A DNA stretch of 64,000 nucleotides from Flaccisagitta enflata (Eukaryota): NCBI GenBank assembly GCA_965153355.1, contig OZ231126.1, positions 43,896,001 to 43,960,000 on the forward strand, given 5' to 3'. The position numbers were made by a program, and so were the translations under genes. Below the pieces are notes generated by a model. The model saw nothing but the letters and a program-made list of their open reading frames with translations, made no database searches and was not told where the DNA came from. Shown in pieces: positions 5,374 through 60,135 of the stretch; position 1 is the first letter of the stretch; each line of letters starts with the position of its first letter.

Positions 5374-5865
5374 TATAAGATACACACAGCAAGACTTGGA
5401 AAGCAAATTTGCTCTTGGTCAACACTGAAAAGAAATTTACCCTTCTCAAAGTGGTACCAAGTGGCCTGGCTCAAATCTTATAGGGCATCAGCCCTGAGGA
5501 GTCTTTTGGCTTGGAAAATGTTCAAATTGCGCAATTCAAGGTTGAAATATTTTTTGGGTTCATGCATCAAAAAAAAACCGAGAAAGAGAAAATGTTATTA
5601 GAGAAATTGGGCTCTTTTTTTTGGCATTACTTGACGGCATTAAATCTAAGATGCATGGTACGCGAAGCACCCAAACCGGGCGAAAAAGCCGTCTTGGTCA
5701 TAAAACCGTTTGGAAATTTGAAATCCAAGCATCCAGTCTTCCCGTGTACATCACAGTCTGGCCGTTCTGTCCATTTTTGCCTTGCCATCATCCCACATCA
5801 TCCTGCATGCTGCAATGAGGGCAGATTTCAAATCGCTGCGGGTTTGGTTTCCTTCAAATTTGTTA

Positions 5866-6467
5866 CAGTGGGGTTCGTGGAATAACAGCCTAAACTGGAG
5901 GAAGGTATTTAAGTGTTTTAATTTCATTTGACAAACTTGATATTTGAAATATAAGTTGTTCACTTGATGCTTTTGTCCCTGAGTTTTTCGGTTGCTATGG
6001 AAACCAAAATTATTTTTTTTAAAAGTTATAACAAGTAGAATATTGGTATTTTGACAAATATTATCAGGGAACATTGCTCAAAATTAAATTTGCTACAACT
6101 TTCCCACAGTGTGTCCTGTAAGAATATCGCTCGTTTAGCCGTTGCTAGGGAGCATCATTTAGCAGTTGCTAGGTGTGATGCCCCTTAGCAACGGCCAAAC
6201 GAGCAATATTCTTACAGAACATACTGTGGGAAAGTTGTAGCAAATTTAATTTTGAGCAATGTTCCCTGATAATATTTCTCAAAATATTGATATTTTAGGG
6301 GTTATAAATGTTTGCAAAAATAATTTTGGTTTCCATAGCAACCAAAGAACTCAGGGACAATAGCATTGAGTGAACAACTTATAATTCAAATATAAACTTT
6401 GTCAAATGAAATTAAGACACTTAAATACCTTCCTCCAGTTTAGGCTGTTATTCCACGAACCCCACTG
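5866..6467. mobile_element. 602-bp fully palindromic MITE (CAGTGGGGTTCGTGG termini, TA TSD; Tc1/mariner-type)
   Basis: Arms pair along almost the whole length; second copy at 44048-44648. Confidence 0.93.
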
Positions 6468-6558
6468 TACGGAAAACGATTCTCGTTATCATCATACATT
6501 TTATAGATTTCTGACGACATATTCAAACAAAATTGCACGATTAACATTATTTGCACTC

Positions 6559-8467: not shown

Positions 8468-9123
8468 CTTTTTTCCTTAACATAATCTTATCACAGGCTC
8501 ATCATACGATCAAGTTGCCTTTTTTTTCTCTGGCGTCCGGGATGAGAGAGAGAGAAGGATGAAAAAATTTCCCTCTTCTTTGCTTCTGAATTATCGGTTT
8601 GAGCCTTACTTAGACTCTCTTCAAGCTCCGATACATATTTTATCAGCTCACGTCCGCAACCCAGAAGATATCCGCACTTGTCCGTGTGTCAGTTGGTGGG
8701 TGATGGTGGCGGTGCGAATGGACATACGATAGAACAAGGCCGGATACACGGGCCAAGACGGCGCGCCGAGCGTTATTAATTCATAGCCATCCCTGGCTCC
8801 ATCAGACCTATCCCCAGCTCTATCAGACCATTCCTAGCTCTATCAGACCTATCCCGCCAGGCGTTATTAATCCATAGCTATCCCTAGCTCCATCAGACCT
8901 ATCCCTAGCTCTATCAGACCATTCCTAGCTCTTTAAGACCATTCCTAGCTCTATAAGACCTATTCCGAGCTCTATCAGGCCTCTCCCGAGCTATATCAGA
9001 CCTTTCCCGAGCTCTATCAGACCTATCCCGAGCTCTATCAGACCTATCATCAGCTCTTTCAGACCTAACCCCAGCTCTATCAGACCTATCCTAAGACCTA
9101 TCCGACCTATCACCAGACCTAAC

Positions 9124-9825
9124 TGTTCGTAATTGCGCCGTATTTTGTTTATCCTCTTATCCATCTACAGGAAATCTCGCTAAATTCGTTATTTTTGGGG
9201 TCGCTCCAAAGACTCGTCTTCCTCATCATCCTCCTCCTCTCTCCTCGATTCCTCGTCCTCCTCATCCTCCCTCCTCGTCATCCTCGACTTCTCTCTTCCC
9301 AATGGACTTCTTCTTCCCAAAAGAAAACATTATCAGAATTCTTCGCCATCATTCAAGATCTAATGACTCATTTTAAGATCATTTAGAGATCATTTAAAGA
9401 TCATTTAAAGATTAAAAGACTCATCGCTTCGCCTTTTCATTGCCTCATTGTATTTCTTCTTGTTATAAGATTTCTCTTTTCTCCCCAGTGCAAGCGAGCA
9501 AGCTTCCATTTTTGTATCGTTTCTATAAGACTTTAATATGGTTATTTCGCGCGTTTGCTGTCATCCCCCCCTTCTGGAAATCATTCATCCTCGACTCCTC
9601 AGGTAGTGAGCCTGCTCAATGATGTGGACTGGCCCACTCTTTTCCTATCGGCTCAAACTAATCCTCCCCCCCTTTCTCTTCTCTTTTGTCATTGTAGAAC
9701 TTACAGATCCCTTCATTCTCCAATTCGCGTATTCGTTCTAGCGGGATTCTTAAGACGGAGTTACTCAGCGATCATCAGGGCATCTAGCTAGCTAATGAAC
9801 TGTTCATACGTCACAAACTCGCACA
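9124..9825 (+). repeat. 5' LTR of element A
   Basis: TGTTCGTAATTGCG...AACTCGCACA; two substitutions seen by eye versus the 3' LTR. Confidence 0.97.
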
Positions 9826-10103
9826 ATCTGTAAGTTCTGACAGTTCACTGGCTCCTTCGGTGAAAGCAAGCGAACAACATCCGCCTCCCCCTCCTCCTCA
9901 TCCTTCCGATCACGAAAGAGCTCAAGAACGTTCTCCTCATCATCTTCCTCTTCACTTCCCCTTCCTCCTCATCCTACCAATTACGCTGAAAGCTCAAGAA
10001 CGTTCTCCTCCTCCTCATCTTCCATTACGTCATCCCTCCTCCTCATTCTTCTAACACGGTGAAAGATAAAGAAACCCTATCCTCTTCCTCATCATCCATC
10101 ACG

Positions 10104-12480
10104 ATGGCAGCAAAGTCCCGCGCAGAAAGAGCCAAAATCCTGGAAGATACTTTAAGAAAAATGCCCGACTTCAACGCCTTGATCGTGGCGGCTGACGCCG
10201 GAGCTATCGGCGGAAGCGGCGCCTCGGTAAACACCGCGATGACATCGGACTTTCAAACGGAAAATGACGAGAGGTCTAGAGAAGCGAAGGCAACGGCACA
10301 AACACTAGGATTGCTCGCGCGTTTCTTCGCTTTACGACATGACGATGTACTAAAAGAATTCGCCGGCGTCGACGATCATGACGCACATCAGGCCTTCCTC
10401 GACATCGACGACATGCGCGTCGCGCTCGTGGGAAAGATGTGGCTGTTTCACGAAATGGTCACGAAAAAACTATTTCCCGCCAATACAAAAGAAGACGTTC
10501 ACGGACGAAAATCGGCTGGAAACCATATCAATGTCATCCTAAAAAACTTTTTCCATACGCGCCGCGCATGCCTTTCACAAGAAACATACGACGACCCTGA
10601 TTACGCCCCAGCCCCACCGACAAAAACTGACTTTGTGCAACAACCCGGCAGAAAGCCGGCGCCGTCGGCGACCCCCGGAAAATCGGGGGAAGTCGCGACG
10701 CCATCGGCTACAGATGTGAAAGTAGACAGAAAAACAATTGCTTCTAAAAATGCGAAAAAGGACGAAGAAGAGCAAGATACTGCGACCGAGAAGCCAGACG
10801 GCGCCGACAACGCCGCCGCAAAAGAATCCGGCGCCCTCGAGGAAGACGGCGCCGAAACCGAGGACGATGCCGAGGCAATTGCGACGGAAGAAGAAAATGA
10901 ACGTCTTGAACAGGTTTTGAGAGAAGAAAATGAAAAAAATATACGTCTCAGAGAAGAACTTAAAAATCTAGAAGCTATCCAAGAAATGCAGAAAAAAGAA
11001 CGGCAAAAGAAAAAGAAAAAGAGAAAAACAAGAAAATGTGAAAACAATTCAAGCAAAAAATCAAGAGATAATCGACAAAATTGACAAAATCCAGTACGAA
11101 ATTAATGATGAAGCCGACGAACCTGCGGATGAAAACGAGATCCAAATTTTTGACAACGGCGCTGTCTCGTCTACAAAAAATGATGCGGCGTCATCGCCCA
11201 ATACAGTCGCCGAATCGTGTGCAGACAACGCCGCCGCCCCTGCTGGAAATGGCAAGAAAAAACGCCGTTACCAAATTAAAGAACACCCAAATGCAGCAAA
11301 AGTACCGCCACCAAATTTCCCACCTCTAGGTAATAGCGGCGCCGCGGGAGGTCATGCATCCCCTGCAGCCGTCGCTGTACAGCAGATTGACGCCGCAGCT
11401 CCGAATCAACCCGACTTTTCAAGACTTATCCATACGCTAGAACTTGATGCTGTCAGACGTAACGTTGTAGGCGTACGTCCTTCAGAACCTTTTAAGCAGT
11501 ACGACGCAAAGAAACAGGGCGAATATAACACACTGATGAACATTTTCGACTCGGCATTCGGTAAAATTAACGGCATATCCGGCAATGAAAAAGTCACGGA
11601 ATTATCGGGACATTGGTTCGCCGGCGCCGCAAAAAAAGCTATCAACGCCGCAAAGCCAACAGTTAACGACCCCAATGGAGACGCCGCTTACAAAGAAATA
11701 AGGTGCCATTTGGACAGTATATTTGCCCACGATGTTGATTCCGCCGCCGACGCCCTTAATCGTTTAAAAGAAGGCGGCGCCATCGCAAGGGACAGCCTCA
11801 TTGCACATCAAGATCTGTACATGAACATGCTAGAAGCTCAGAGCTCCGCGTTGACGGTATCCTCGGCGGAGTTGTTTGACAGAAGGAGTAGCCTCCTAGA
11901 GATCATTTCTGCGCGAATACCATTTTATGCAGAGAAATTCTTTGAAGAATACGAACAAGGAGATGGCTTTCAAAAACTTCTCGATTTTGTCCTTACGCGC
12001 ATTAACCTCCTCAAAATCATTCAAATGTCGATAGAACCCGAAACGACTCAAACGGAAGCCGAAGGAATAAAGCATCAGCATCATCTCCACGCTACCGACC
12101 ATCAGACGCAGCATCATTTTGAACAAAATAAAAGCTGCATGTATTGCAAAAACCGTCACGATACATCAAAATGCGATAAACTTTACTGCCTTTCCATAGA
12201 AGACAGAGTAGCAGTAATTTCCACGCTCCATCTCTGTTACCACTGCCTCCGCCCTGGACACAACGCCAGATCCTGTCCAGAAAAGAGGGAAGTCACCTGC
12301 AGCATCTGCAGCAGGAAAGGGCATGTGACGCTCCTTCATGGCAGGCATCTTCTCCACTCTCCCAACGACTCGCCGTATCGTCACCGACGCAACGATTCTG
12401 ACGACGCCGGCGATGACACAAAGTCCGACCTCGAAGCGCTCGAGTCCAACGGAACTGAGGATGAAAATGAATTATGTTGA
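10104..12480 (+). pseudogene. gag: BEL/Pao-type Gag of element A, split by a +1 frame change in an A-rich tract near 11000-11040
   Basis: ORFs 10104-11084 and 11038-12480 overlap. C-terminal triple knuckle CMYCKNRHDTSKC, CYHCLRPGHNARSC, CSICSRKGHVTLLH is typical of BEL/Pao Gag. Confidence 0.85.
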
Positions 12481-12634
12481 GTCGTTGAGAACTTGGACCG
12501 TAATTCTTCGATCTCTCGTTGTACTCGATCTGCTCATCTCCGTCACGCCATTCAACTCCATTCACGCCATTCATCTCCGTCAATCCATTCATCAGTTCCT
12601 TGAATGAAAACAACAATTAAGATCGGCTTTTCTT

Positions 12635-12709
<75 letters not shown>

Positions 12710-12933
12710 GATTACGACTCGCCTCATAAAAAATTACCGCGTTCACTCGACAGAGGTCATCCTAAAAAAGAAAAAAGCTCTCTCGTTTACTGCGACAAAT
12801 TTCATCACTCCCCCCCCCCCCCGTTCACACAAAATTTCATCCTCGTCATCAAAATCCTTATTCCAACTCAACGCCAACGACAATAAAGCCCCGTTACCTT
12901 CAACTTATCCTCAGCCTCATCACATGAACTATT

Positions 12934-13290
12934 CCCGTCTGTCATCTTCCCGTCTGTTATCTTCCCGTCTGTCATCTTCCCGTCTGTCATCTTCCCGTCT
13001 GTCATCTTCCCGTCTGTCATCTTCCCGTCTGTCATCTTCCCGTCTGTCATCTTCCCGTCTGTCATCTTCCCGTCTGTCATCTTCCCGTCTGTCATCTTCC
13101 CGTCTGTCATCTTCCCGTCCCTCATCTTCCCGTCCATCATCTTCCCGTCTGTCAGCTTCCCCTCTGTCATTTTCTCGTCTATCATCTTCCCGTATGTCAT
13201 CTTCCCGTCTGTCATCTTCCCGTCTGTCATCTTCCCGTCTCTCATCTTCCCGTCTGTCATCTTCCCGTCTGTTCATCTTCCCGTCTGTCA
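12934..13290. repeat. 15-bp minisatellite (TCATCTTCCCGTCTG)n inside element A
   Basis: More than 20 tandem copies, homogeneous at the left end and diverging to the right. Confidence 0.95.
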
Positions 13291-14005
13291 TACTCCCATC
13301 TCTCATCTTCTCTTTTTCGCAATAATCAAACTCGCATCATATGAAAACCATCATTTTTACGTTGGAGGCATCTCCGGCGCTTAGTCGGGGTCATCTCCTG
13401 CGTATCTACATCGCCAAAATCTCTCTCTCTCTCTCGAACCGCCTCTTCTATCAACGAAAATCAGACAAAACTAGGCCTACACCTTCGCATATGACTCTCC
13501 ATGTCATATTAAAGAATCACCCTAAAATGCCGCCGTTTCACCTCAACGTCGGCAACAATGTGTCAACTTTATCCTCGGCGTTGTCCCACACCCATCCCTA
13601 GGGTCTCGTCAACATCGTTCCCGCCATCTACTGACATCGCCCCTCAATCTCGCCTTCTGTCATATCCTGTCACCCGTCCTCATCATCCACGTCCAAGTTT
13701 TGTTTCCTTCGACCTGTTCTTTTGACTAAGCGCCAATAATCGAACTCGCATAATATTCACCGGCATCATCACATCCCCCCCTTAATTCGGATCACGACAC
13801 GAAAAAGAAATTCCTCGTTTTGCCATTACTGACGTCAATGCCGTCAATCTCACCTCTTCTGTATCTCATTTCTCATCCTCCATCACGTCCCTAGCATCTT
13901 GTTCCCACAGACTATTCTGATAAAAAAAAAACATTACTCTACGTTGGAGGCATCCCCGGCTCTTAGTCGGGGTAATCTCTTGCGTATCTCCATCGTCTGA
14001 ATCTT

Positions 14006-14080
<75 letters not shown>

Positions 14081-14476
14081 CCCCTCGTTGATTACAACGT
14101 TATTAACCCCCGTTTCACGTCAACGTCAACAATAATGCGTCAACTTTATCCTCGGCTTTCTGCTCGACCTCGCCATCATCATTCCCGCCATCAACATACA
14201 TCCCCCCTCAATCATGCCTTCATGCTTTCATCTCTTCTCACCCGTTCTCATCATCCACGTCCTAGTTCTGTTTTCTTCTGTTTTCTATCCTGGACTTTAT
14301 CGTCAACTCCTATGGACTACTTATCAATCTCGCCTTCATCATTTTCGACCACTCACGTTTTCTTTCCATTCTCATCTTAATCATTCCGCCATCCCCCTGC
14401 CACTCAGTATCATCATTTTACGTTGGAGGCATCTCCGGCGCTTAGTCGGAGTCATATCTGACATATCTCCATCGCC

Positions 14477-14557
<81 letters not shown>

Positions 14558-14805
14558 CTCGCCCTCTCGCTCTCGCTCTCGCCCTCTCGCTCTCGCTCTC
14601 GCCCTCTCGCTCTCGCTCTCGCCCTCTCGCTCTCACTCTCGCTCTCGCCCTCTCGCTCTCGCTCTCTCTCTCGTTATCATATCTCATATCCTCTCATATC
14701 ACATCGTATCATGCCAGGGATGAGTGCCGTCGCCGTTGGCGAACCCGGGAGATTCTGGGGATGCTACGGCAGCAAATGGCAAAACAGATGCCCTGGATCC
14801 TTCTC

Positions 14806-14889
<84 letters not shown>

Positions 14890-15632
14890 AGAAGAAGAAG
14901 AAGAAGAAGCAACCAACAAAGATGTAGTCCTCGTCCGATCCTCGTCATCCTCCTATCCTCATCCTCGTCATCCGTCCCTTCCTCATCCTCGTACAACGCC
15001 GGCGAATGAGCGTCATCCTCCTTCTCCCCCCGCTCCTCATCAAGCCGCCAAGCTAGGATGCAGTCTAGGATGCAGTCTGGCTCAGTTACGCTTATCTCGC
15101 TCTTCCTCCTCGTCATCATCATCATCATCAATCCCCCAACTCTCGATGGCGGAGACGCGCAATGGATCGAGTCGCCAAGGTCGTGGACGAACGCCGGATT
15201 ATCGGCGGAAAATCTGCGGCGAATGCGGCGACAAACCCGAACCCGTTACTACCGCCATCCTCATCCTCTTCTTCATCCCGATCCTCATCAAACCGCCAAG
15301 CCGGGTCCGACGCCGGAATATCGGCGTGAATCTCGGCGAAAGCGGCGACAAACTTATCTTTGACTCGCCCCATTTTCCCGCATTCCTACACGCGTTTTAA
15401 AGACTCATCCATCTCATCATCCTCATCCTTCTCCTCATCTTCTGTATATAGTTTTTTTTTTGATTCCTTTGTGTTTCTTCTTTTGTTCATCGCACATCCC
15501 CTCCCCCCAGTCCACATCATCATAACTATTTTTTAGATTTTTTTTTTCTCGCTTGCACAGTAGTCTTGTTCTCCCCTTAGTCCCCCCCCTTCGAGAAATC
15601 ACTTCATCTGCCATACTGGCAGATCCTGGGGC

Positions 15633-16334
15633 TGTTCGTAATTGCGCCGTATTTTGTTTATCCTCTTATCCATCTACAGGAAATCTCGCTAAATTCGTTA
15701 TTTTTGGGGTCGCTCCAAAGACTCGTCTTCCTCATCATCCTCCTCCTCTCTCCTCGATTCCTCGTCCTCCTCATCCTCCCTCCTCGTCATCCTCGACTTC
15801 TCTCTTCCCAATGGACTTCTTCTTCCCAAAAGAAAACATTATCAGAATTCTTCGCCATCATTCAAGATCTAATGACTCATTTTAAGATCATTTAGAGATC
15901 ATTTAAAGATCATTTAAAGATTAAAAGACTCATCGCTTCGCCTTTTCATTGCCTCATTGTATTTCTTCTTGTTATAAGATTTCTCTTTCCTCCCCAGTGC
16001 AAGCGAGCAAGCTTCCATTTTTGTATCGTTTCTATAAGACTTTAATATGGTTATTTCGCGCGTTTGCTGTCATCCCCCCCTTCTGGAAATCATTCATCCT
16101 CGACTCCTCAGGTAGTGAGCCTGCTCAATGATGTGGACTGGCCCACTCTTTTCCTATCGGCTCAAACTAATCCTCCCCCCCTTTCTCTTCTCTTTTGTCA
16201 TTGTAGAACTTACAGATCCCTTCATTCTCCAATTCGCGTATTCGTTCTAGCGGGATTCTTAAGACGGAGTTACTCAGCGATCATCAGGGCATCTAGCTAG
16301 CTAATGAACTGTTCATACGTCACGAACTCGCACA
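15633..16334 (+). repeat. 3' LTR of element A
   Basis: Same length and near-identical sequence to 9124-9825. Confidence 0.97.
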
Positions 16335-18349
16335 CTAACCGACCTATCCCCAGCTCCATAAGACCTAACCGTAGCCGATTATATTAGTGAATGAAATGAC
16401 GAGTATCATTTATGATGAACGAAATGAGTTTTCTATTGATTTCAAACGTTTTTAGCGATTTTTTACTCGAGCGTGACCGACGGATGGACGGACGGACGGA
16501 CAGAGCTTCTCATAGAGACGCTATGGCGCATCTAAAAATCATCCTAGCATATTTCTGAATCATTTCCAGTGATTTTTGCTTCTTTTCGAGATTTTCAACT
16601 CGAGCGTGACCGACCGACCGACCAACCAACAGACAGAGCCTCTCATAGAGGTGCTATGGCGCACCTAAAAATGCCATGGGAGGTTCACTGGCAGTTACTA
16701 GACCGCCGCGAATCTTGGACCAATAGATATCTATCATTTCATCATAACAGCATACATTAGAAATGCAATAATTTGAACATCTGATAATCAAAATTCATGA
16801 GCATGATCATGGAAAAATAAAACTTAATAGACAGAGTGCATGAACAAAAAACACTTAAAAGATTGAATGCTATTAACCGCCATTAATCTAAGACCGACAA
16901 TTTGGGACGTCCGCGTCCCTCATTCGCGTCCCTCGCCGTTTGTCCATAGAGGTGTGGTGTTCATCTAACTCTTGCCTATCCTAATTCTGAGAATATCTTC
17001 ATGTACGTGTTTCTCTTTTGTACGGCTGTGGTTCCATATGCACTTTTTGTCTTTGACTCTGTGTTTCTGTTTGTACAATGTGTACAATGTCCATGTGTTC
17101 AGTTCCGGTACAAATTTGCCAATAGATTCTCCATATACAATGACGTCAATTACTGTTTCTATTTCATTCCTTATCTCTACTAACTCTTTCATCAATTATC
17201 AGTCGAACGCTGATGCCGTGAGGAAAATGTCCCAGAAACTTTTCCGTTCATCCTTTGTTTTCCCTCTTTATCATTTATTAATAAAAAAAAATCATATAAT
17301 ACATAATGGCGCAAACACGCTTCTGAAATGTTATCAACGGCTGTGGAGTGTCTCGCACGTAAATACGTCAACCCCGGTCTCGATCTATCTTACCACCTTG
17401 TCCATTTTTCATCCCTTTAACAACGGCTTTGACCTACATCTCCGCGATCACGAGTATTTATGATGTCCCTCGCACGTGACCTTTGCTGCATTAACCCTCA
17501 TTTCCACATTCTTTATATCGTGTTGATTCCGCCATCCACCATTTAGTCATACGACCCGTACATTTTGATTGAATGATCTTCTTCTTATCAACCATTACCA
17601 AGTCATGCTAACTTCCGTCAACCATACATTTTTCTAGGGGGGAGAGTAAGGAAAGGAGGTCCTTTTAGACCCATTTACCAACTTTTTTCCCTTTCGCTTA
17701 AACACATAGGGTGTAACATTGAAGACAATTCAGGTCTTGTTTTCGGCATTTCACTGCAAAAAAATCAATGTTTGTTTCTGAAAATTTACCTTATTTAATT
17801 CGATTTATTTATTTTCCAGTGTCGACGTTGCATCCCTTTCTGTACTTTCGGCTATCCACATTCTTTGCTGTTAGCGTTTGCCCCCAACCAACTCCCCCTT
17901 TCTACTCCCCCTCCCTTCAAAGCTAAGCTACTATTCTACTTGTTTCCCATTCCGGGGCCTTTTGTCTTTCTCTCCTCGTTCGTTGGTCGGTGGCAAGTGA
18001 GTGACAGAAAACGGAGTCTTTGACATATTTCCTCCCATATATTCTCGCGTTCTCCTCCCCTTTACCCCCCCCCCCGCCTTGCCCCCACCCCAATCATATC
18101 ATGAGCTTCCGCCGACCCACCTCCCTACTGACTTTTCTTATTTCTTTTTTCTTCTTTTCCTTTTTCTATTCATTAATTCGTTTATTCATTCATTCATTCA
18201 TCCATTAATCCATTCATTTATTCATTCATTCATTCAACATCTATTCATCTTCTTCCTTTCTTTCTCTTTTTTTCCTTCTTTTTTAAAAGATGTGGTTTTT
18301 GCTCTCTATTTTACGTTTGGCTTTTAATTATGCCTTTCCCACTCCCTCA

Positions 18350-29355: not shown

Positions 29356-32110
29356 TATTCCATGGGAATTTCATATTTTTTTCATTTTTCATCAATTTTC
29401 CATGTTATTCTATGGGTAGTTTGCAATTTATCAATTTTCCATGTTATTTAATGGGAAATTGAGGCTTGAGAAGCTGGGGGGATGGACGTGCGGACGGACG
29501 GACGGACATTTGGAAATTCACCCCTGTGTCCTACAAGGGTTCAAGTTGAGAGAATTTCTAACATTCTGTATTGATTGCGTTTGTTGTTTTTTCGTCGCTT
29601 TTTTCTTATCTTTTGTCCCTTTTTCGACATTTCCTGATAGTCATAGGTGTGTCTTACTATATCTCTACCTATACATCGTCAGTCGGTCTGTGGTGATCGA
29701 GTTGGAAAGCGTGAAAATGTGCACTTCCGTCCCTGCCCACCCGTCTGCGGCTGATATTGGCCCTTGTTTCTGTTCATGTCCCAAACGACTAAGAAATGAT
29801 GACTTCAGAACAAATTCAAAGATTACAATTTAGGACACAGTTTATTTGAACGACAAACTCGGTCTATCAGTTTTTTATAACTTTAAGTTATTAGAATAAT
29901 AAATAAATAAACTCATAGATAGTTTGTTAAGTCCAGAACTATAGTTTTTAATACTACAAAATTATAATTCAGCAGTATTTTACATCTGCATATATGTAGA
30001 ACATACCTTAGATAATTATCAAAAGAACAATATTTATAATTGAAAATATGATAGATGAACGAATAGACAAATGAATTAATAGAAAGATTAAGATAGCAAA
30101 ATCATTTTGTTTGTCGGAGTCTAAAAATAATGATGAAATTAATCATTATTATTAGTGTGTAAACTATTAAAAAATTATAATGATATTGTATTATGAAATG
30201 AATAAAACAATCTATTAAATTCATACATTTCTAAAAAAAGATCTAATCTAAAACATATTTCAAGTGAAATTATGAAGCCCTTTAGTTCAATAATATGTAA
30301 AAAAATATAAATTAGAAATGCTAGTTTTTAAAATTAAAAACAAATAAAATAATCTATTTTTAGAATCTTATTTTTAGTCGCGGACACGCGACTCTACACC
30401 TTGCCGTGTCGGTCGGTAAGCCAATAGGTCGGTCCGTCCGTTTGTCCATCCGTCCGTCCGTCCGTCCGTCCAAGCGGTTTTCGCATCACTGCTCCTGCCC
30501 AACCGTCCGCGACTGGATTGCCGTGTACCTGGCCATGTTAAATGATATTTGATTTTTTAAAATCTTTAACCTTAAAAAAATCGGGTAATTTGTATTTAAA
30601 TTTCTATAATTTTTAACTCTAATTAAATCTTGCCTCGACCCTCAAATTTTACCTCTCGTTTGCATCTTGACTTAGATTAAGTTACAGCGAATGAGCTTCT
30701 TAATTCTATATAAACCGAAAGTGAGAGAGAATCTTGAATAAACCGAAAGTGAGAGAAATAGAGAGAGAACAAGGCCGGATACACGGGCCAAGACGGTGCG
30801 CCGGGCGTTATTAATTCTTAGACCTATCCCTAGCTCAATCAGACCTATCCCTAGCTCTATCAGACCTATCCCTAGCTCTATCAGACCTATCCCGAGCTCT
30901 ATCAGGCCTATCCCGAGCTCTATCAGACCTATCCCTAGCTCTATCAGGCCTATCCCGAGCTCTATCAGACCTATCCCAAGCTCTATTAGACCTATCCCGA
31001 GCTCTATCAGACCTATCCCGAGCTCTATCAGACCTATCCCCATACCTATCTGACCTATCACCAGACCTATGCGACCTATCCCCAACTTGATCAGACCTCA
31101 ACTTAGCTGATTATTTTGGTGAATGAAATGAATTTTTGTGAATGAAATGAATTTTGTGAATGAAATGAACGAAATGAGTTTTCAATTGATTTCAAACATT
31201 TTCAGCTAATGAAATAAATGAATGAATGAATGAATGAATGAATGAATGAATGAATCAATCAAGGAATGAATGAACGAATGAACGAATGAATGAATGAATC
31301 AATCAATCAATGAATGAACGAATGAAGGAATGAATGAATGAATGAATTTATGAATGAATGAATTTATAAATGAATGAATGAATTTATGAATGAAATGAAT
31401 TTTAGTGAATGAAATGAATTTCATTGAATGAAATGAATTTTAGTGAATGAAATGAATTTTAGTGAATGACCTCAATGTAGCTGATTGTTTTAGTGAATGA
31501 AATGAATTTTAGTGCATGAAATGTATTTCAGTGAATGAAATGAACGAATTGAGTTTTCAATTGATTTCAAACATTTTCAGTGAATGAATGGAATGAATGA
31601 ATGAATGAATGAATGAAATGAATGAATGAATGAAATGAATGAATGAAATGAATGAATGAATGAAATGAATGAATGAATGAAATGAATGAATGAATGAAAT
31701 GAATGAATGAATGAAATGAATGAATGAAATGAATGAATGAAACAAATAAATGAAATGAATGAATGAAATAAATAAATGAAACAAATAAATGAAATGAATG
31801 AAATGAATGAAATGAATGAAATGAATGAAATGAATGAAATGAATGAAATGAAATGAAACGAATGAAATGAAATGAATGAAATGAATGAAATGAAATGAAA
31901 CGAATGAAATGACTGAAATGACATGAAATGACATGAAATGAATGAAACGAATGAATGAATGAAATGAATGAAATGAATGAAATGAATGAAATGAATGAAT
32001 GAAATGAATGAATGAAATGAATGAATGAAATGAATGAATGAAATGAATGAATGAAATGAATGAATGAAATGAATGAATGAAATGAATGAATGAAATGAAT
32101 GAATGAAATG

Positions 32111-32607: not shown

Positions 32608-34909
32608 CTCCCGGCCAATTTTTTAATTTAAAAAATTTTTTCCCAAAAAAGTTTCGAGAGGGGGGCAAAATCTAAGGATAGCATAAAAACAAAGAAAAAT
32701 TGGGGGAGATCGAGTAAGGATGGGGACACACAAACGAAAACAGCACACACCACCCGCGCATTCCCCTGGGGACGAAGGGTGCTACTGCTCTGCAGCTTGC
32801 TCAATAGACAAACACCCCCTTCCCGTCTCACTCGACCATGCTACCCAAAGGACAAAATTGGCGACTAAACTACAGCTAATACAATGACAAATTAATATAA
32901 CGATTCAGATGGTATGTTAATGAGACGCACCCCTACCCCCATCAAGACCCACCACCCACCGTCTACAGGGCCAGCACCCAATCACCGACCAAGGTGGCGC
33001 CGCTGCCTTAGGCTCGGTTCCAGCTTATGCCATTATCAACGTTACCGTCGACGATGAACCAGCAGCTTCACGGCGGCCTTGGGGCCTTGTTGCGCAACTA
33101 CCAGGACAGTGAAAGAAAAAGACAGGAACCAACCCTCGCCCTTAGTGGACCGACCCAAGGGATATGACCAACGACTAACGACCAAATGAGGCCTGAAACA
33201 TAACCACACAGGCCACATCCACGCCTGGGGAAAAATGGTAGCCTGCCCAGGGGCCCGCCCAACAAGACAGGAAGGCGAGGAACTCAATAAGGGGCAATAC
33301 AACGCACGCCTCTTTTCATCTTTCCCTTGAAAACCTCACCCCCCACTCAACAAACGTGTTAGTACCCCAACCACGACGCTGTCCGGGAGCATAATCACTC
33401 GCGAGTGGAAGAGGCTTCTTTTTGTTGAGATCTAGGGATCATTGAGTAGACATGGGCTGCTGCCAAATTGACAATCGACTTCATCGCCCGCACGAAAGAG
33501 TCAATTCCACAATGGCCGCCAAAACAAGACATAAGAGAGCCGGCGTTGAGGAGAATTTACCTAGTTAAGACGGGGATAGGGGGGGGGGGAAGGGGGGTTT
33601 GGGACCTTGTGGTATTTCCAGACAGGGGAACATGACCGGAAATACATCAGGGATTAAAAACCAGCAATGATAAGAGATACTACACCTAAAATAAATAATT
33701 AAAGTCAGCCAACGTGTAAATGTCACGTTAAGAATAGATAGAAATAAAAAATGCGCAAACGCAAAACGAACAACGAAATCACGTGCTAAAAACGCGAAAC
33801 GCAAAACGAAATTGACCAAAAATACCAATCAATGACCAGTAATAAATAATGTTACAATAATAATGCATAAAAATGATAAAAAGGCGCAGCCAAAAAACGA
33901 CAAAACCATCCCTTATCCCCTACCCATTGGGTAACAAATCACAAGCGATAAAAACAGAAGAAACCAAAAGAGAAAAGGAGACAGAGCGAAACGGAGCAGG
34001 GAAGAGAAAGAGTCAAAGGGAGCAGGGAAGAGAACGAAAGAACACAAGAGAGGCAAAAACGAGAAGGAAAAAAGAAAGGAGAGACCGAGAGAGAGAATGA
34101 GAAAGAGAACGAGAACGAGAAAGAGAACGAGAGAGAGAACGAGAGAGAGAACGAGAAAGAGAACGAGAAAGAGAGCGAGAGAAACAACAAAACAGAACGA
34201 GAAACAGAACGAGAGAAACAACAAAACAGAACGAGAAACAGAACGAGAGAGAACAAAAACACTACGCAAAACAAAACAATGCCCATCACCTAAAATGATG
34301 ATGAGAAAGAGCGTGGAAATCGACTTTCGGAGATTCCTCTGCTTCTTTAATCCCATCGAACGTCGAGAGACGTAGCCAGTGGAGGAGGAGGAGGAGGAGA
34401 AGACGGAGGAAGGGAGAATGATCGGCGCCATCTTTGAAAGGAGTCGAGACGACGAGTGCCGCCATCTTTCTTCCTGCGTGGGCCGGAAGTGATCACGGGC
34501 GCCCTCCAGCAATTGAAAAAACCGTCCGGAAGCAACTGTTGGGTGAATACAAAGAAAACACGCAAACAGAGGACGTAAAAACGTTATCAAAACACTAACA
34601 GATAAGGGGCGGGAAAAGAAAGGGCTATGCATTGAAACGATTTGACTCAGTGCAACATGGTCAAGCAATCCTCAATGTCAATCACTCTTTCAATTAAACT
34701 TATCCGTTTTAGAAGTGTCGATATGGAACACATAAAAATGCATTCCATCGCCAAAATCCAAAATCCAGCTGTCAAAGGCCCCTCCACCGGACAAATGGAA
34801 GACTTCAAGGAGCTGGGGACGCGTCTGTTTGCAATCACGTGACTTGTATGGACATGAAGGCGCATTTGCGGAAGTGAGGCAAGAAGGGTAGATTGGATGG
34901 TAAAATAAC

Positions 34910-37831: not shown

Positions 37832-38126
37832 AAATGAATGAATGAAATGAATGAATGAAATGAATGAATGGAATGAATGAATGAAATGAATGAAATGAAT
37901 GAATGAATGAAATGAATGAATGAAATGAATGAATGAAATGAATGAATGAAATGAATCTTAGTGAATGAAATGAATCTTAGTGAATGAAATTAATCTTAGT
38001 GAATGAAATGAATCTTAGTGAATGAAATGAATTTTAGTGATTGAAATGAATGAAATGAGTTTTCAATTGATTTCAGACATTTTCAGCAAGTTTTCATTCG
38101 AGCGTGACCAACGGATGGACAAACCT

Positions 38127-43624: not shown

Positions 43625-44047
43625 GTGAGATATGCAAAAAAAATATCCAAGCGAGAGAGAAAATGATGAAAGTAAATATGAAAAATAACCGACAGACCTC
43701 CAGAAAGATAGCAAGACAAACAAACAAACAAACAGACGGGAGGAGAAAAAATTCATACTTTTCTCCCCCATTCCATCTTTGCCAAGTGACGGATACACGG
43801 CCCCTGAATCGTGGAAAATTAATTTAACAAAGCCGGATATGCTCTCTTTCCATTGACATCATACCTTTTAACCCTACTCTTTCTCATGTATATAACAGTT
43901 ATGCCCTCTCCACTCCAACCCCTTCTTCTGCCCTTTCATGTTTCTTAACAGTAATGGCGGCTGTCGCCGTGAGGAAAAAAGTCGTAAGCTTTGATCCCTT
44001 TTCACCAAACTTTTGTCTTCAGTCACTGCAAATCTCTTTGTTTGTTA

Positions 44048-44648
44048 CAGTGGGGTTCGTGGAATAACAGCCTAAACTGGAGGAAGGTATTTAAGTGTCT
44101 TATTTTCATTTGATAAACTTGATATTTAAAATATAAGTTGTTCACTCAATGCTTTTGTCCCTGAGTTTTTCGGTTGCTATGGAAACCAAAATTATTTCTT
44201 TAAATATTTATAACCACTAAAACATCAATATTTTGAGAAATATTATCAGGGAACATTGCTCAAAATTTAATTTGCTACAATTTTCCCACAGTATGTTCTG
44301 TAAGAATATTGCTTGTTTGGCCGTTGCTAGGGGCATCACACCTAGCAACCGCTAAATGATGCTCCCTAGCAACGGCTAAACGAGCGATATTCTTACAGGA
44401 CATACTGTGGGAAAGTTGTAGCAAATTTAATTTTGAGCAATGTTCCCTGATAATATTTGTCAAAATATCAATATTCTAGTTATTATGAATGTTTAAAAAA
44501 ATAATTTTGGTTTCCATAGCAACCAAAAAACTCAGGGACAAAAGCATCGAGTGAACAACTTATATTTCAAATATCAAGTTTGTTAAATGAAATCAAGACA
44601 CTTAAATACCTTCCTCCAGTTTAGGCTGTTATTCCACGAACCCCACTG
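44048..44648. mobile_element. Second copy of the palindromic CAGTGGGG MITE, opposite orientation
   Basis: Same TIRs and TA TSD; central spacer is the reverse complement of that in 5866-6467. Confidence 0.93.
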
Positions 44649-46060
44649 TAGATCAAATCAAAAGCAATTGTATGTATTGATTGCACTAAAAATCAGAGAA
44701 AAATAGGACTGCGCCAAATGAGTTAGATGAGCTAAAATGCTCAAAATCACTCAACCAGATAACCAGCTATGCTCACTGACATGCTTTCTTGTATTTACAC
44801 ATCACATCAAAACATTTATTTATTTCTCCCAGAAAAAAAAAGACTGAGCTAAATGAGCTAAGTGAGCTAGAATACTTAAAAACACCCTCGGAGATGAGCA
44901 GCTATGCTCTGGGACGTGCTTTTTTGTATCTGCTTGCTTAAACATGTATCAAAATATTTATTCATTTATAGCATTTGAAATCAGAAAAAAATACTGAGCT
45001 AAATGAGCTAGAATGCTCAAAAACACCCTCACAGATGAGCAGTTATGCTCATAAACATATTTCTTGTATTTGCATGCATAAATATCTGCAAGCAAATCCT
45101 CTTCCTCCTTTTAAAACCATTATGTCGGTCGGTCGGTCGCGTCGGTTGGTCAGTCACCATTTTCTTTTTGAGTGTATTCGGGCGAATTTTGCATTACTGC
45201 TCCTGCCCAAATGCTTGAAATAGTTTTTTATATCACTGCTCCTGCCCACCGCACGCAACTTTGGTAGCCGTGTATCCGGCCTTGTTTTTCTTTCAACCAG
45301 TCTTTAAAAACTCAAACCATTCTCAATGATTTATCATGAACATATGACGCACTGAAAATTACCGTAGAATTAGCTACCCAAGCCAGATGAATTTTGATTT
45401 TCATAACATCAATTTTGATAAAGTTTTTTGCTTGTGTGTGATCAATTAACATATGAATAGATATATTTTGCATGAAAAAACTTTAACAAGTCAGTTCAAG
45501 TCTTGAGTCATGAATTTTGTGGTAAAAAAACAGACAAAATCATGGAAAATCTCACTTTGTTATTGAACCATGACTTATACAGAATTCCAAATTTGCATAG
45601 AAACCAAAATCTCAAAAAAATAAGACCATAGCGCGATCCCCAACTCAGTTACTGATCGCGCTATGTTCTTATTTCATGGAAATTTTGATTTTCTGTGCAA
45701 ATTTGAAATTCTGTGTGAGCTCAAAATAAATCGATTGTCGCTAATTTCTTCACTTTTTCTTAACTTCATGGTCAAATTTCTTTCGTTCCTTTTTCCCATT
45801 TTATCATTTATCAATGAAATACCATTTCTCTTATGTAATTAAACAAACTAAAGTTTGAAAAAAAAAAGCAGATATTGATGAAATAGAATTGTTAATGTAA
45901 TTGATTCGTTTGTCCTGCGAGTAAATTCCTCTATCTTAAGTTTCATTCAAATTTTTTTCTACAAGATTTAAAGAGCTGGCAAAGGACTGACAATTTGGAT
46001 ATTTCTAGACATGCGTCCCTCATGTTTCATCATGTCCCCTGTTCCATCTACCTTTATCAG

Positions 46061-47003: not shown

Positions 47004-47139
47004 TCTCTCCCTTTCTCTCTAGCAAAAAGTGAGGACACATTTATAGTTGAAAAAAATTCAATTAGTGGGAAGAAAACAAAAAGCGAATTGAGAAAGATTT
47101 TGAGACATCTGATGACAAAAAAAAACTAACTTAAATAAA

Positions 47140-48530
47140 AGACTATGGAGAGGATATTCTTGAGATAAACAAAATACAGAATATGATAAGTGGTGAGGAT
47201 GCAAGAAACAAAGGATTTGCAAAGAGATATGTGGAGATACCTAGAAAAAATAAATACAAACAAAAGATTAAGGTGTAGACACATTCTTGGGATGAAAAAA
47301 ACTCATAGATGGGAAAAAAAAGGTGAGAATGTAAAAACAAAAGATTTACAAAGCGATATATGGAGACATCTTGAAAAAAAAAATAACAGAAACAAAGGAC
47401 TAAGGTGAGGACACATTCTTGAGATTAAAAAAAATTACAGAATATGATAAGAAAAAAAAGGTGAGGATACAAAACAAAAGATTTATAAGGAGATATATAG
47501 AGACATCTTGAGAGAAAAAATAACAAAAACAAAATACTAAGGTGAGCACACAATCTTGAGATGAAAAAAAGAATACAGAATAAAGAAGAAAGAAGAAAAC
47601 GAAAAGGTGAGCACGCAAAATAATAAAAAAAGACTAACACAAACAAAAGACTAAGGTATATGTGGAGACATCTGGAGTGAAAAAAGTAACAAAAACAAAA
47701 GACTAAGGTGAGCACACAATCTTGAGATGAAAAAAAAAATACAGAAGAAAGAAGAAAATGAAAAGGTGAGCACGCAAAATGATAAAAAAAAGACTAACAT
47801 TAACAAAAGACTAAGATATAAAAAGAGACATCTTGAGAGCAAAAAATTACAAAAACAAAAGACTAAGGTGAGCACACAATCTTGAGATCTAAAAAAAATA
47901 CAGAATAAAGAAGAAAAGAAAATGAAAAGGTGAGCACGCAAAATAATGAAAAAAAGACTAACACAAACAAAAGACTAAGGTATATATGGAGACATCTTGA
48001 GAGAAAAAAATAACAAAAACAAAAGACTAAGGTGAGCACACAATCTTGAGATGAAAAAAAAAATACAGAAGAAAATAAGAAAATGAAAAGGTGAGCACGC
48101 AAAATGATAAAAAAAGACTAAGATTAACAAAAGACTAAGGTATATAAAGAGACATCTTGAGAGAAAAAAAATTACTAAAACAAAAGACTAAGGTGAGCAC
48201 ACAATCTTGAGATGAAAAAAAATACAGAATAAAGAAGAAAAGAAAAAGAATAGGTGAGCACGCAAAATAATGAAAAAAGACTAACACAAACAAAAGACTT
48301 AGGTATATATGGAGACATCTTGAGAGAAAGAAATAACAAAAACAAAAGACTAAGGTGAGCACACAATCTTGAGATGAAAAAAAAAATACAGAAGAAAGAA
48401 GAAAACTTGAGAGAGAAAAAATAACACAAACAAAAGACTAAGGTGAGCACACAATCATGAGATAAAAAAAAACAGAATGAAGAAGATAGAAGAAAAAGAA
48501 AAGGTGAGCACGCAAAATAAGAAAAAAAAA
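47140..48530. repeat. Complex satellite, period about 160-166 bp with about 55-bp subunits
   Basis: AAGGTGAGCACACAATCTTGAGAT recurs near 47539, 47705, 47865, 48029, 48190, 48352. Confidence 0.9.
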
Positions 48531-48729: not shown

Positions 48730-48794
48730 GTAAGATAAGAACCGGACAATCAAGGAAGTTTATGGGCTAGTCGTAGCCTTGTCTTAGACCTATA

Positions 48795-49323
48795 CAGTCA
48801 GCGGACAAAACACAATAGGTATATATATATCACTCCGTTGGTTTTGATTCAACTCACTGATGCTGAACAGAATGCTGTAAACAACAACTGGTTGTTGAAA
48901 TTACAGCCGGCTGTTAAGTTACAAAGTTGGCAAAAATCCAACTTTCACCAAATAGAATGAGACCTGCAGATTCATAATCCTGATGAAATTCTGGGAAGTT
49001 TGATATGTCACAATATATACTTTTATATAAAAACAAAAATTTTTATCAATGTTTAATTTAATTATAATGCAATATCAAAAAAATTATTTCTTACAAAAAG
49101 TGTTAAGTGTGACATATCAAATTTTTCAGAATTTCATCAGAATTATGAATCTGCAGGTCTCATTCTATTTGGTGAAAGTTGGATTTTTGCCAACTTTGTA
49201 ACTTAACAGCCGGCTGTAATTTCAACAACCAGTTGTTGTTTACAGCATTCTGTTCAACATCAGTAGGTTGGATCAAAACCAACGGAGTGATATATATACC
49301 TATTGTGTTTTGTCCGCTGACTG
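48795..49323. mobile_element. 529-bp palindromic MITE, CAGTCAGCGG termini, TA TSD
   Basis: Near-perfect arms over almost the full length. Confidence 0.92.
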
Positions 49324-49461
49324 TATATGGGCCAGCCGATATGACAGGAGCTCCTTTCGTCTCATCCCCAAATTCCTGTCCAGTGCCCATTAGTATGGGG
49401 GTAGGAGGCGGGGGACTGATTTCTAGATTGAACTAGGGCCCATAATTCCTGGATACATGGA

Positions 49462-50112
49462 GATTAGCTTGTAACGAAATGACAATAAACAATAAAATCA
49501 GAATTCTACAAGTAGTTCTTGTTGTGGGGCTGTCTTGGGCTTCTAATGACATCAATTGCAGTTTGAAAATTTTGCATCTTGCTGGCCGCGCCTTACCTTG
49601 AAATTTCCTTTAGCCTATAGGAAACCAAAAAATTCAAGTTACTAAAATCCCATTTTTGACTGCATATTTGAAATCTGCATGAAAAACTGATAATTGAAAG
49701 TGCTTTTCTTTTTTCAAAATTCCCTCGGGATCATAGTCAAAATTCATCTTGAAGATATGACAAAAAGGTAAGTTCGGCGATTTTACAAAGAAATTAAAGA
49801 GAAAGGTAAGTTTTGCAAACTTCAACGCTTATTTTAAGCACCTTCTAGTTGGAATTTTGAAAAAAGGAAAGCACTTTCAATTAACAGTTTTTTCTGCAGA
49901 TTTCAAATCTGCAGTCAAAACAATGATTTAAGCACTTTGAAATTTTTGGTTCCTCATAGAGGTAGGTTTTACCAAGGGTAAGACGCGGAAAGCTTAAAGT
50001 AGGATTTAAGTGGCAAAACTGATCTTAACAGGAGCCCAAGACAGCCCCACAGCATAAAGTGCATGTAGAATACCAAATTTATCACTTTTTGTAATTTAGG
50101 TACAAGCTAATG
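49462..50112. mobile_element. Older foldback element with degenerate long arms
   Basis: TGTGGGGCTGTCTTGGGCT / AGCCCAAGACAGCCCCACA and TTTTGACTGCA.ATTTGAAATCTGCA / TGCAGATTTCAAATCTGCAGTCAAAA; ends approximate. Confidence 0.7.
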
Positions 50113-50536: not shown

Positions 50537-50911
50537 CAGTCAGTGGTCAAAACAATAGTTTATGTTATATCTATTGTAAGCTTTAATTCAACATTTTTTT
50601 ATGATTTAAAATATAGATTATATAATGGATAAGATACTTCTTGTGTAAATAGCAAACCATTGATGCTGATTTAAATATTTAATATCAAACTCAACCTTTG
50701 TATTAAAAAATCAAGTGAATGAAATAACTCAAATTAACAATCACACCAAAATTTGATTTTTTTGAAGTAAATTATAACTTGCAGATTTTCATTCTACACT
50801 GTCATTTTCATTCACTTGATCTTTTAATACAGAGATTGAGTTTGATGTCAAATATTTAAATCAGCGTCAATGGTTTGCTATTTACACAAGAAGTATTTTG
50901 TCCACTGACTG
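50537..50911. mobile_element. Foldback MITE, CAGTCAGTGG termini (related to 48795-49323)
   Basis: Termini CAGTCAGTGG / CCACTGACTG and long internal inverted arms; TSD degraded. Confidence 0.7.
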
Positions 50912-59569: not shown

Positions 59570-60135
59570 AAACTGGAGGATTAATTTTTGTTATTCTATT
59601 TTCAATTCCCAAATTTCTTTTTTTGTATCTAACTTAACTAAAAGATACTTGATTCCTTGAACATATTTAGCTGTCAAAAAAAATAACTTGTGAAATCAAA
59701 ATGCATGAAGACAATAATATGGAGTGTTTTAACCCATACCATTAAATTCAGCAGAAAATTTTACCTATCCTAGACTACAAGAACAGCTCAGTTAGACAAT
59801 TATTTCAGATTCTATGGCCATTTAAAGTTTGTAAGGACAATTGTCCTAAATTATTTTGAGACAATTGTCCTTAAAAACTTTAAATGACTATAAAATCTGA
59901 AATAACTGTCTGACTGAGCTGTTCTTGTAGTCTAGGATAAGTAAAATTTTCTGCTGAATCCAATGGTCTGGGTTAGAAAACTCCATAGTGATGTCTTCAT
60001 GCACTTTGATATCACGAGTTATTGATTTTGACAGCCAAATATGTTCAAGGAATTAAGTATCTTTTAATTAAGTTAGATACAAAAAATAAAGTTTGAGAAA
60101 TAAAATCAAAGTAACAAAAATTAATCCTCCAGTTT
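59570..60135. mobile_element. About 565-bp palindromic foldback in intron 8
   Basis: AAACTGGAGGATTAATTTTTGTTA / TAACAAAAATTAATCCTCCAGTTT, with arms pairing to the centre near 59850. Confidence 0.85.

Follow-up and report, generated by a model that had tools for sequence, protein, structure and literature searches.

We describe two LTR retrotransposons, A and B, in a 64,000-nucleotide stretch of Flaccisagitta enflata DNA (the window), and propose that they are self-primed, gag-only elements of the BEL/Pao lineage, with a helix between U5 and the leader of element A clamping its primer-binding site (PBS). This reading, to which we assign a probability of roughly one half, is the best overall explanation for the complementarities between LTR and leader and their statistics, for the dominance of the A helix in a constrained fold, and for the pairing of position 9795 in further copies of the element.

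Two pairs of long direct repeats mark the two elements in the window, A on the forward strand and B on the reverse strand. The 5′ LTR of A (9124-9825; 702 nt, TG...CA) differs from the 3′ LTR (15633-16334, also TG...CA) at two positions, 9480 and 9815, and the element is bordered by the target-site duplication CTAAC (9119-9123 and 16335-16339). In B, the 497-nt 5′ LTR (37831-37335, reverse strand) and the 3′ LTR (32607-32111) differ at one position, and the 5-bp target-site duplication is CATTT. The LTRs are 99.7-99.8% identical within elements, and both elements have 5-bp target duplications. Near-identical direct LTRs combined with a short target-site duplication are the marks of an LTR retrotransposon, and A and B are recent insertions of this kind. 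Beyond these two LTR pairs, no further copies of either LTR were found in the 64-kb window. Both elements are located inside satellite arrays. Element A sits in a 21-nt tandem repeat (8728-9121) that recurs near B (30763-31157), and element B is embedded in an array of (AATG)n and a 19-nt repeat that runs on at both sides (31161-31580 and 37833-38086).

In each element, the PBS follows the 5′ LTR without a gap and is the exact complement of a stretch inside the element's own LTR, as the initial annotation had reported for both. The 13-nt PBS of A (9826-9838) complements the putative self-primer AGAACTTACAGAT (9696-9708), and two extra pairs are possible across a bulge (9694-9695 with 9840-9841). 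The 14-nt PBS of B (37334-37321, reverse strand) complements the putative self-primer TTAATTTATTTTAC (37521-37508, reverse strand). When the LTRs were shuffled, 0/2000 reached 13 nt for A and 0/2000 reached 14 nt for B. The primer and PBS sequences of A are unrelated to those of B, yet they are complementary inside each element; this within-element complementarity of unlike pairs is the strongest comparative signal in the window. A TGG at or near the LTR end is absent from A and B, the first one occurring at +24 in A and at +93 in B, and there are no tRNA genes in the 64-kb window. Shortly before both putative primers stands TCATT (9689-9693 in A; 37524-37520, reverse strand, in B), which we take to resemble an initiator motif. 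This pentamer was dismissed as an initiator-like signal since its 10 occurrences in the LTR of A and 3 in that of B make it too frequent to count.

A stem formed by U5 and the leader had been annotated around the primer site of both elements, and for A its letters and coordinates proved accurate. The U5 segment GCTAATGAACTGT (9791-9803) and the leader segment ACAGTTCACTGGC (9840-9852) form 11 Watson-Crick pairs, one U.G pair and one A.C mismatch (A9795/C9848). The helix extends by one pair at each end, which gives a U5 arm at 9790-9804 and a leader arm at 9839-9853 with 15 facing positions: 12 Watson-Crick pairs, two U.G pairs (U9793.G9850 and U9804.G9839) and the A.C opposition at 9795/9848, A9795 being the sole mismatch in the window copy. 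The leader arm adjoins the PBS directly, starting at the base after it, and the strand 9826-9853 is therefore pairable end to end, over 13 nt with the primer and over 15 nt with U5. Pairing between U5 and the leader that encloses the PBS, as in retroviruses, is found in A in the form of 9790-9804 with 9839-9853. Since the segments follow one another in the order primer, U5 arm, PBS and leader arm, the stem crosses the primer duplex, and the pseudoknot between the two that had been suggested holds by topology.

The A stem is well above chance. A helix of 15 positions with one mismatch was reached by 2/3000 mononucleotide shuffles and one of 15 uninterrupted pairs by 0/3000, while the duplex energy of -19.0 kcal/mol was reached by 6/500 mononucleotide shuffles. 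In addition, the leader window was the best of 99 natural 20-nt windows, its U5 pairing being matched by 0/98 of the others in the next 1 kb. When primer and PBS were blocked in the fold, the helix was present in the MFE structure and eight of its pairs (9796-9803/9840-9847) had probabilities of 0.89-1.00. The outer four pairs reached 0.26-0.28 because a shifted register via the AGCTAGCT repeat competes with them, and forcing the full stem of the initial annotation cost 0.7 kcal/mol under the same blocking. In these constrained folds the block was set at 9697-9709 and so missed the true primer, 9696-9708, by one base, a shift that should make no difference.

In the unconstrained MFE fold of A, the primer duplex was kept and the leader arm was taken up by a local hairpin (9844-9864; 8 bp, loop 9852-9856). 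Because the primer duplex and the A stem cross, an ordinary MFE fold cannot display both. The whole A leader folded no better than its shuffles (z = -1.19). The stability of the A helix was -17.8 on the antisense strand and -17.9 on the sense strand and does not discriminate between them; a DNA-level palindrome may therefore lie behind the helix. On the other, 5′ side of the PBS, a further flanking duplex did not rise above chance in either element (129/500 shuffles for A and 142/500 for B). Searching the whole window against Rfam gave no family at the gathering level, with sub-threshold snoRNA-like noise in the A leader and nothing in the B leader.

Other copies of element A were sought among contigs from two DNA and two RNA public runs, aligned to 9400-10300 at a likeness of at least 80%. 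Position 9795 was G in all 11 contigs that cover it (eight in X3 and one each in X1, X14 and X18). A G at 9795 complements C9848, so that by base-pair logic the other copies form the helix without a mismatch. Positions 9815 and 9816, in the loop, were also G in all covering contigs, and the other copies have a C insertion behind 9853, just outside the A helix and in the loop of the hairpin 9844-9864. Among the variants listed, none other affected the arms, primer or PBS of A, and R-U5 (9695-9825) had three variant sites across the four runs compared with many in U3 and in the downstream leader. The family contigs were at least 97% alike in R-U5, and one metagenome contig spanned 9695-9954 with seven substitutions and two indels. 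The A at 9795 is present in the two LTRs of the window copy, which fits a change made no later than the round of reverse transcription that gave rise to this copy. Compensatory changes were not seen in the A arms; the family signal is one one-sided difference, at 9795, and not covariation, and a neutral mutation private to the window copy would explain this difference just as well.

Some further features of these contigs deserve mention. In other copies, variation in R-U5 is far lower than in U3 or in the leader downstream. In contigs of three runs, similarity to the window ends just 5′ of 9695, a position that lies one base ahead of the putative A primer. The RNA contigs from X14 (9662-9826) and X18 (9695-9825) were considered as evidence for the transcript start and the leader and were rejected: they continue into unlike sequence, the leader arm is outside their coverage, and they are 3′ or solo LTRs with flanking DNA.

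For element B, the annotated letters and coordinates were likewise accurate. On the reverse strand, 37371-37359 pairs with 37311-37301 through 5 bp, a 2-nt bulge and 6 bp (one of them G.U), and further out AATAGAC (37395-37389) pairs with GTCTATT (37298-37292). Unlike that of A, however, the U5-leader stem of B is marginal to chance level. The duplex of the PBS-adjacent 20 nt, best with this U5 arm, has an energy of -16.2 kcal/mol, which was reached by 13/500 shuffles, and 10/98 natural windows were equally good. Its longest gap-free helix was reached by 855/3000 shuffles, or by 369/3000 with one mismatch allowed. Blocking primer and PBS in the full fold gave the stem a pair probability of 0.00, and forcing it against the competing fold cost +6.9 kcal/mol for the inner pairing and +8.4 kcal/mol for the inner and outer pairings together. 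A local 9-bp hairpin (37410-37402 with 37374-37366) competes for this U5 arm, whose GUGAAC forms the 3′ half of that hairpin.

The motif AATAGAC...GGCGGC occurs twice in the R-U5 of B (37499-37481 and 37395-37359, reverse strand), and both copies are complementary to the leader segment 37312-37292, which includes the annotated arm 37311-37301 and can pair with either copy through 37312-37306 and 37298-37292. The copy chosen in the MFE fold was AAUAGAC-5 nt-GGCGGCG (37499-37481), 8 nt after the primer. As isolated duplexes, this alternative partner reached -20.0 kcal/mol against -19.6 kcal/mol for the partner first annotated, and either pairing crosses the B primer duplex. The duplicate motif may therefore constitute an alternative-pairing switch. 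Some pairing between LTR and leader around the PBS is likely in B, although the version first annotated is not the favoured one.

As a stem conserved in both elements, the annotated feature is not supported, given its pair probability and folding cost in B. TGAACTG in U5 and TTCACT in the leader had also been described as common to A and B. They are indeed present in both, but this does not extend to conservation: the R-U5-leader regions of A and B have 3 seven-mers in common where 3.63 would be expected, the score of their best local alignment is that of shuffled sequence (17 versus a mean of 17.1), and TTCAC starts at +6 relative to the PBS in A and at +16 in B. On these comparisons, the motif provides no evidence of conservation. 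What A and B have in common is layout, not sequence.

Each element has one real gene, gag. That of A (10104-12480) is of the BEL/Pao type with three zinc knuckles, and that of B (36937-34910, reverse strand) has the same zinc-knuckle layout; the two Gag proteins, with three zinc knuckles each, are 29% identical over 307 residues (E 2e-28). The gag of A is read in two overlapping frames (9990-11084 and 10972-12480) that meet in an A-rich run at about 10990-11030. A relative, P0004 (792 aa, 95% identical), has a single uninterrupted frame, so that a frameshift is present in this copy of element A or in its assembly. Further Gag relatives are 51-76% identical. Domains of protease, RT or integrase were absent from all 10 ORFs tested in the two elements, and tblastn with seven pol-bearing relatives gave matches confined to gag, showing that pol is absent from A and B. 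Neither element codes for RNase H or has a chromodomain. The space where pol would be expected (12481-15632 in A; 32608-34909 in B) consists of tandem and simple repeats, for example with a period of 15 at 12842-13351, and the long frames 3′ of gag are low-complexity translations of simple repeats. Between the post-gag internal regions of A and B, tblastx detected no similarity.

A profile built from Gag A, Gag B and five relatives retrieved 8546 proteins at E <=0.001. Seven of the eight longest among the 150 matches listed had at least one Pao-type domain (DUF1759, Peptidase_A17 or DUF5641), and one had none. Gag-Pol proteins bearing DUF1759, Peptidase_A17 and DUF5641 were matched by the profile at E of about 1e-18, and hhalign of the profile with one such protein gave a probability of 98.3% (E 1.8e-14); Pfam made no call of DUF1759 on the gag of A or B. 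The resemblance to Pao-type Gag-Pol proteins, together with the absence of pol, marks A and B as gag-only, probably non-autonomous LTR retrotransposons that belong to the BEL/Pao lineage and reside in a marine animal. BEL/Pao elements have been reported from metazoans only (PMC3601003). The runs containing the LTR of A are marine metagenomes and one coded organism, and members of the family are common in marine sequence data. One metagenome locus found with the Gag profile (L001) was discarded as a false match, being a 47-residue match at 34%, without repeats, inside a longer frame on the opposite strand. Searches of viral contigs by the Gag profile or by the PBS-leader string returned nothing.

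Under the mechanism that we propose, A and B would start reverse transcription by self-priming and not from a tRNA, with the 5′ end of the transcript folding back so as to pair with the PBS directly after the 5′ LTR. In A, the helix 9790-9804/9839-9853 would close a 34-nt loop (9805-9838) containing the PBS and would cross the primer duplex, forming a pseudoknot that would last until cleavage of the primer. We infer that this helix acts like the retroviral U5-leader stem and the duplexes that flank the PBS of Tf1. Its role would be to hold the primer/PBS helix in a defined geometry for the RT and RNase H of a pol-bearing partner element, presumably supplied in trans, and the RT would need to melt the helix after copying about 21 nt. 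No pol-bearing partner element was seen. The role in the initiation structure that had been attributed to the stem is plausible for A, where it dominates the blocked fold and 9795 is paired in other copies, though overall unproven. More tentatively, and with less confidence than we place in the main reading, self-priming might also operate in a gag-only lineage derived from BEL/Pao, in which the primer/PBS and U5-leader pairings, stacked along one leader strand into a composite helix of ~28 bp, would replace the tRNA as the handle by which a pol-bearing partner recognises the non-autonomous copies and mobilises them.

For retroviruses and Tf1, helices enclosing the PBS are textbook knowledge, and a U5-leader stem also occurs in avian retroviruses. 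To our knowledge, self-priming has so far been tied to the Tf1/sushi chromoviruses. In Tf1, initiation requires the primer/PBS duplex plus two duplexes in which PBS-adjacent sequences pair with the LTR downstream of the primer (PMC10085805), RNase H cuts the primer off (PMC10085805, PMC7175516), and the primer duplex is 11 bp long (PMC7175516). For HIV-1, a U5-leader stem is described, together with a need for the sequence 3′ of the PBS for efficient initiation (PMC1865047). The precedents that the initial annotation invoked, Tf1 duplexes flanking the primer/PBS and retroviral U5-leader pairing, are thus in print (PMC10085805; PMC1865047).

A and B resemble the Tf1/Tf2 'pretzel' in that their PBS abuts the 5′ LTR and complements an LTR-internal stretch where the transcript could start. 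In A, moreover, PBS-adjacent sequence pairs with the LTR downstream of the self-primer, a likeness in pairing partners to the flanking duplexes that PMC10085805 describes for Tf1. The primer duplex, however, is 13-14 bp in A and B as opposed to 11 in Tf1, and in place of the two flanking duplexes described there, only one is above chance here, on the 3′ side in A, with that of B near chance. The Tf1/sushi elements are Ty3/gypsy chromoviruses with a chromodomain integrase, whereas A and B have a BEL/Pao-type Gag and neither pol nor chromodomain; the type of Gag and the absence of pol therefore place them outside the Tf1/sushi group.

As in the retroviral stem, U5 of A pairs with the leader beyond the PBS and so encloses it. 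The difference is that in place of a tRNA, the 5′ end of the element itself would serve as primer, and the stem would therefore cross the primer duplex within one molecule until cleavage; no sequence or Rfam similarity to the retroviral stem exists. With the BEL/Pao elements (Belpaoviridae), A and B have in common a homologous Gag and LTRs with 5-bp target duplications. According to the ICTV profile, BEL/Pao elements are tRNA-primed and their 18-nt PBS complements tRNA-Arg or tRNA-Gly (PMC8742986), whereas the PBS of A and of B matches the element's own LTR, no TGG stands at the LTR end, and pol (Pao protease, RT, RNase H and integrase) is absent. Literature searches, covering listings and passages of PMC5443660, PMC3601003, PMC8742986 and PMC13524379, yielded no mention of self-priming in BEL/Pao elements. 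While a helix enclosing the PBS is known, its BEL/Pao setting is unexpected, as is Tf1-like priming outside the Tf1/sushi group.

The data on the A helix bear on explanations other than a clamp on the PBS. The pairing could have arisen by chance, or be what is left of a local duplication in a region rich in GTTCA/TGAAC, and have no function, with G at 9795 simply being the family's older state. We consider this unlikely, although GTTCA/TGAAC does recur in U5 and leader of both elements, the B stem and the motif common to A and B are at chance level, and covariation is absent; the stem was also hunted by eye in the first place, so that best-case selection is built in. It is difficult to reconcile with controls of three kinds (2/3000, 6/500 and 0/98), with a helix that abuts the PBS exactly, and with an R-U5 in which three listed variant sites across four runs compare with many in U3 and the downstream leader. 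Somewhat less likely again is a real RNA structure with another task in the leader than initiation, such as packaging, dimerisation, control of gag translation or a switch between hairpin and long-range pairing. The position of the helix, adjoining and enclosing the PBS, is that of the initiation helices in retroviruses and Tf1, and neither a dimerisation palindrome loop nor packaging evidence speaks for such a task; in favour of another task, both A arms can form local hairpins (the leader at 9844-9864 and U5 at the near-palindrome ATGAAC-T-GTTCAT, 9795-9807), and the B leader, with two near-isoenergetic partners (-20.0 and -19.6 kcal/mol), is switch-like.

The TGAAC/GTTCA half-sites might also serve as DNA-level sites for host transcription factors in the LTR and leader, the RNA pairing being a by-product. 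This would account for a helix that is equally stable on both strands of A, for the near-perfect palindrome TGAAC-T-GTTCA in U5 and for the presence of the half-site in both elements. We nevertheless regard it as improbable, and as the least likely of these alternatives, given that the half-sites are located 3′ of the putative start of the transcript, that the A pairing comprises 15 positions and thus goes well beyond a half-site of 5-6 nt, and that the sense strand of B pairs better by 3.1 kcal/mol.

If the self-priming of gag-only BEL/Pao elements is true, self-priming arose or survived outside the chromoviruses, and gag-only elements depend on an RNA fold to borrow the enzymes of a partner. 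The abundance of the family in marine data means that a genome-wide alignment could allow a direct covariation test of the initiation pseudoknot.

Elsewhere in the window, none of the 28 other reading frames tested had a Pfam family of note. Foldback-type self-complementary segments of 280-660 nt, with arms 70-90% identical, occur at 5864-6469, 44046-44650, 48791-49327, 49463-50111, 50626-50904 and 59570-60135; those at 5864-6469 and 44046-44650 belong to one family and are 90-95% alike. A tandem array at 47100-48530 is built of units of ~160-164 nt, the copies of which are 62-89% alike.
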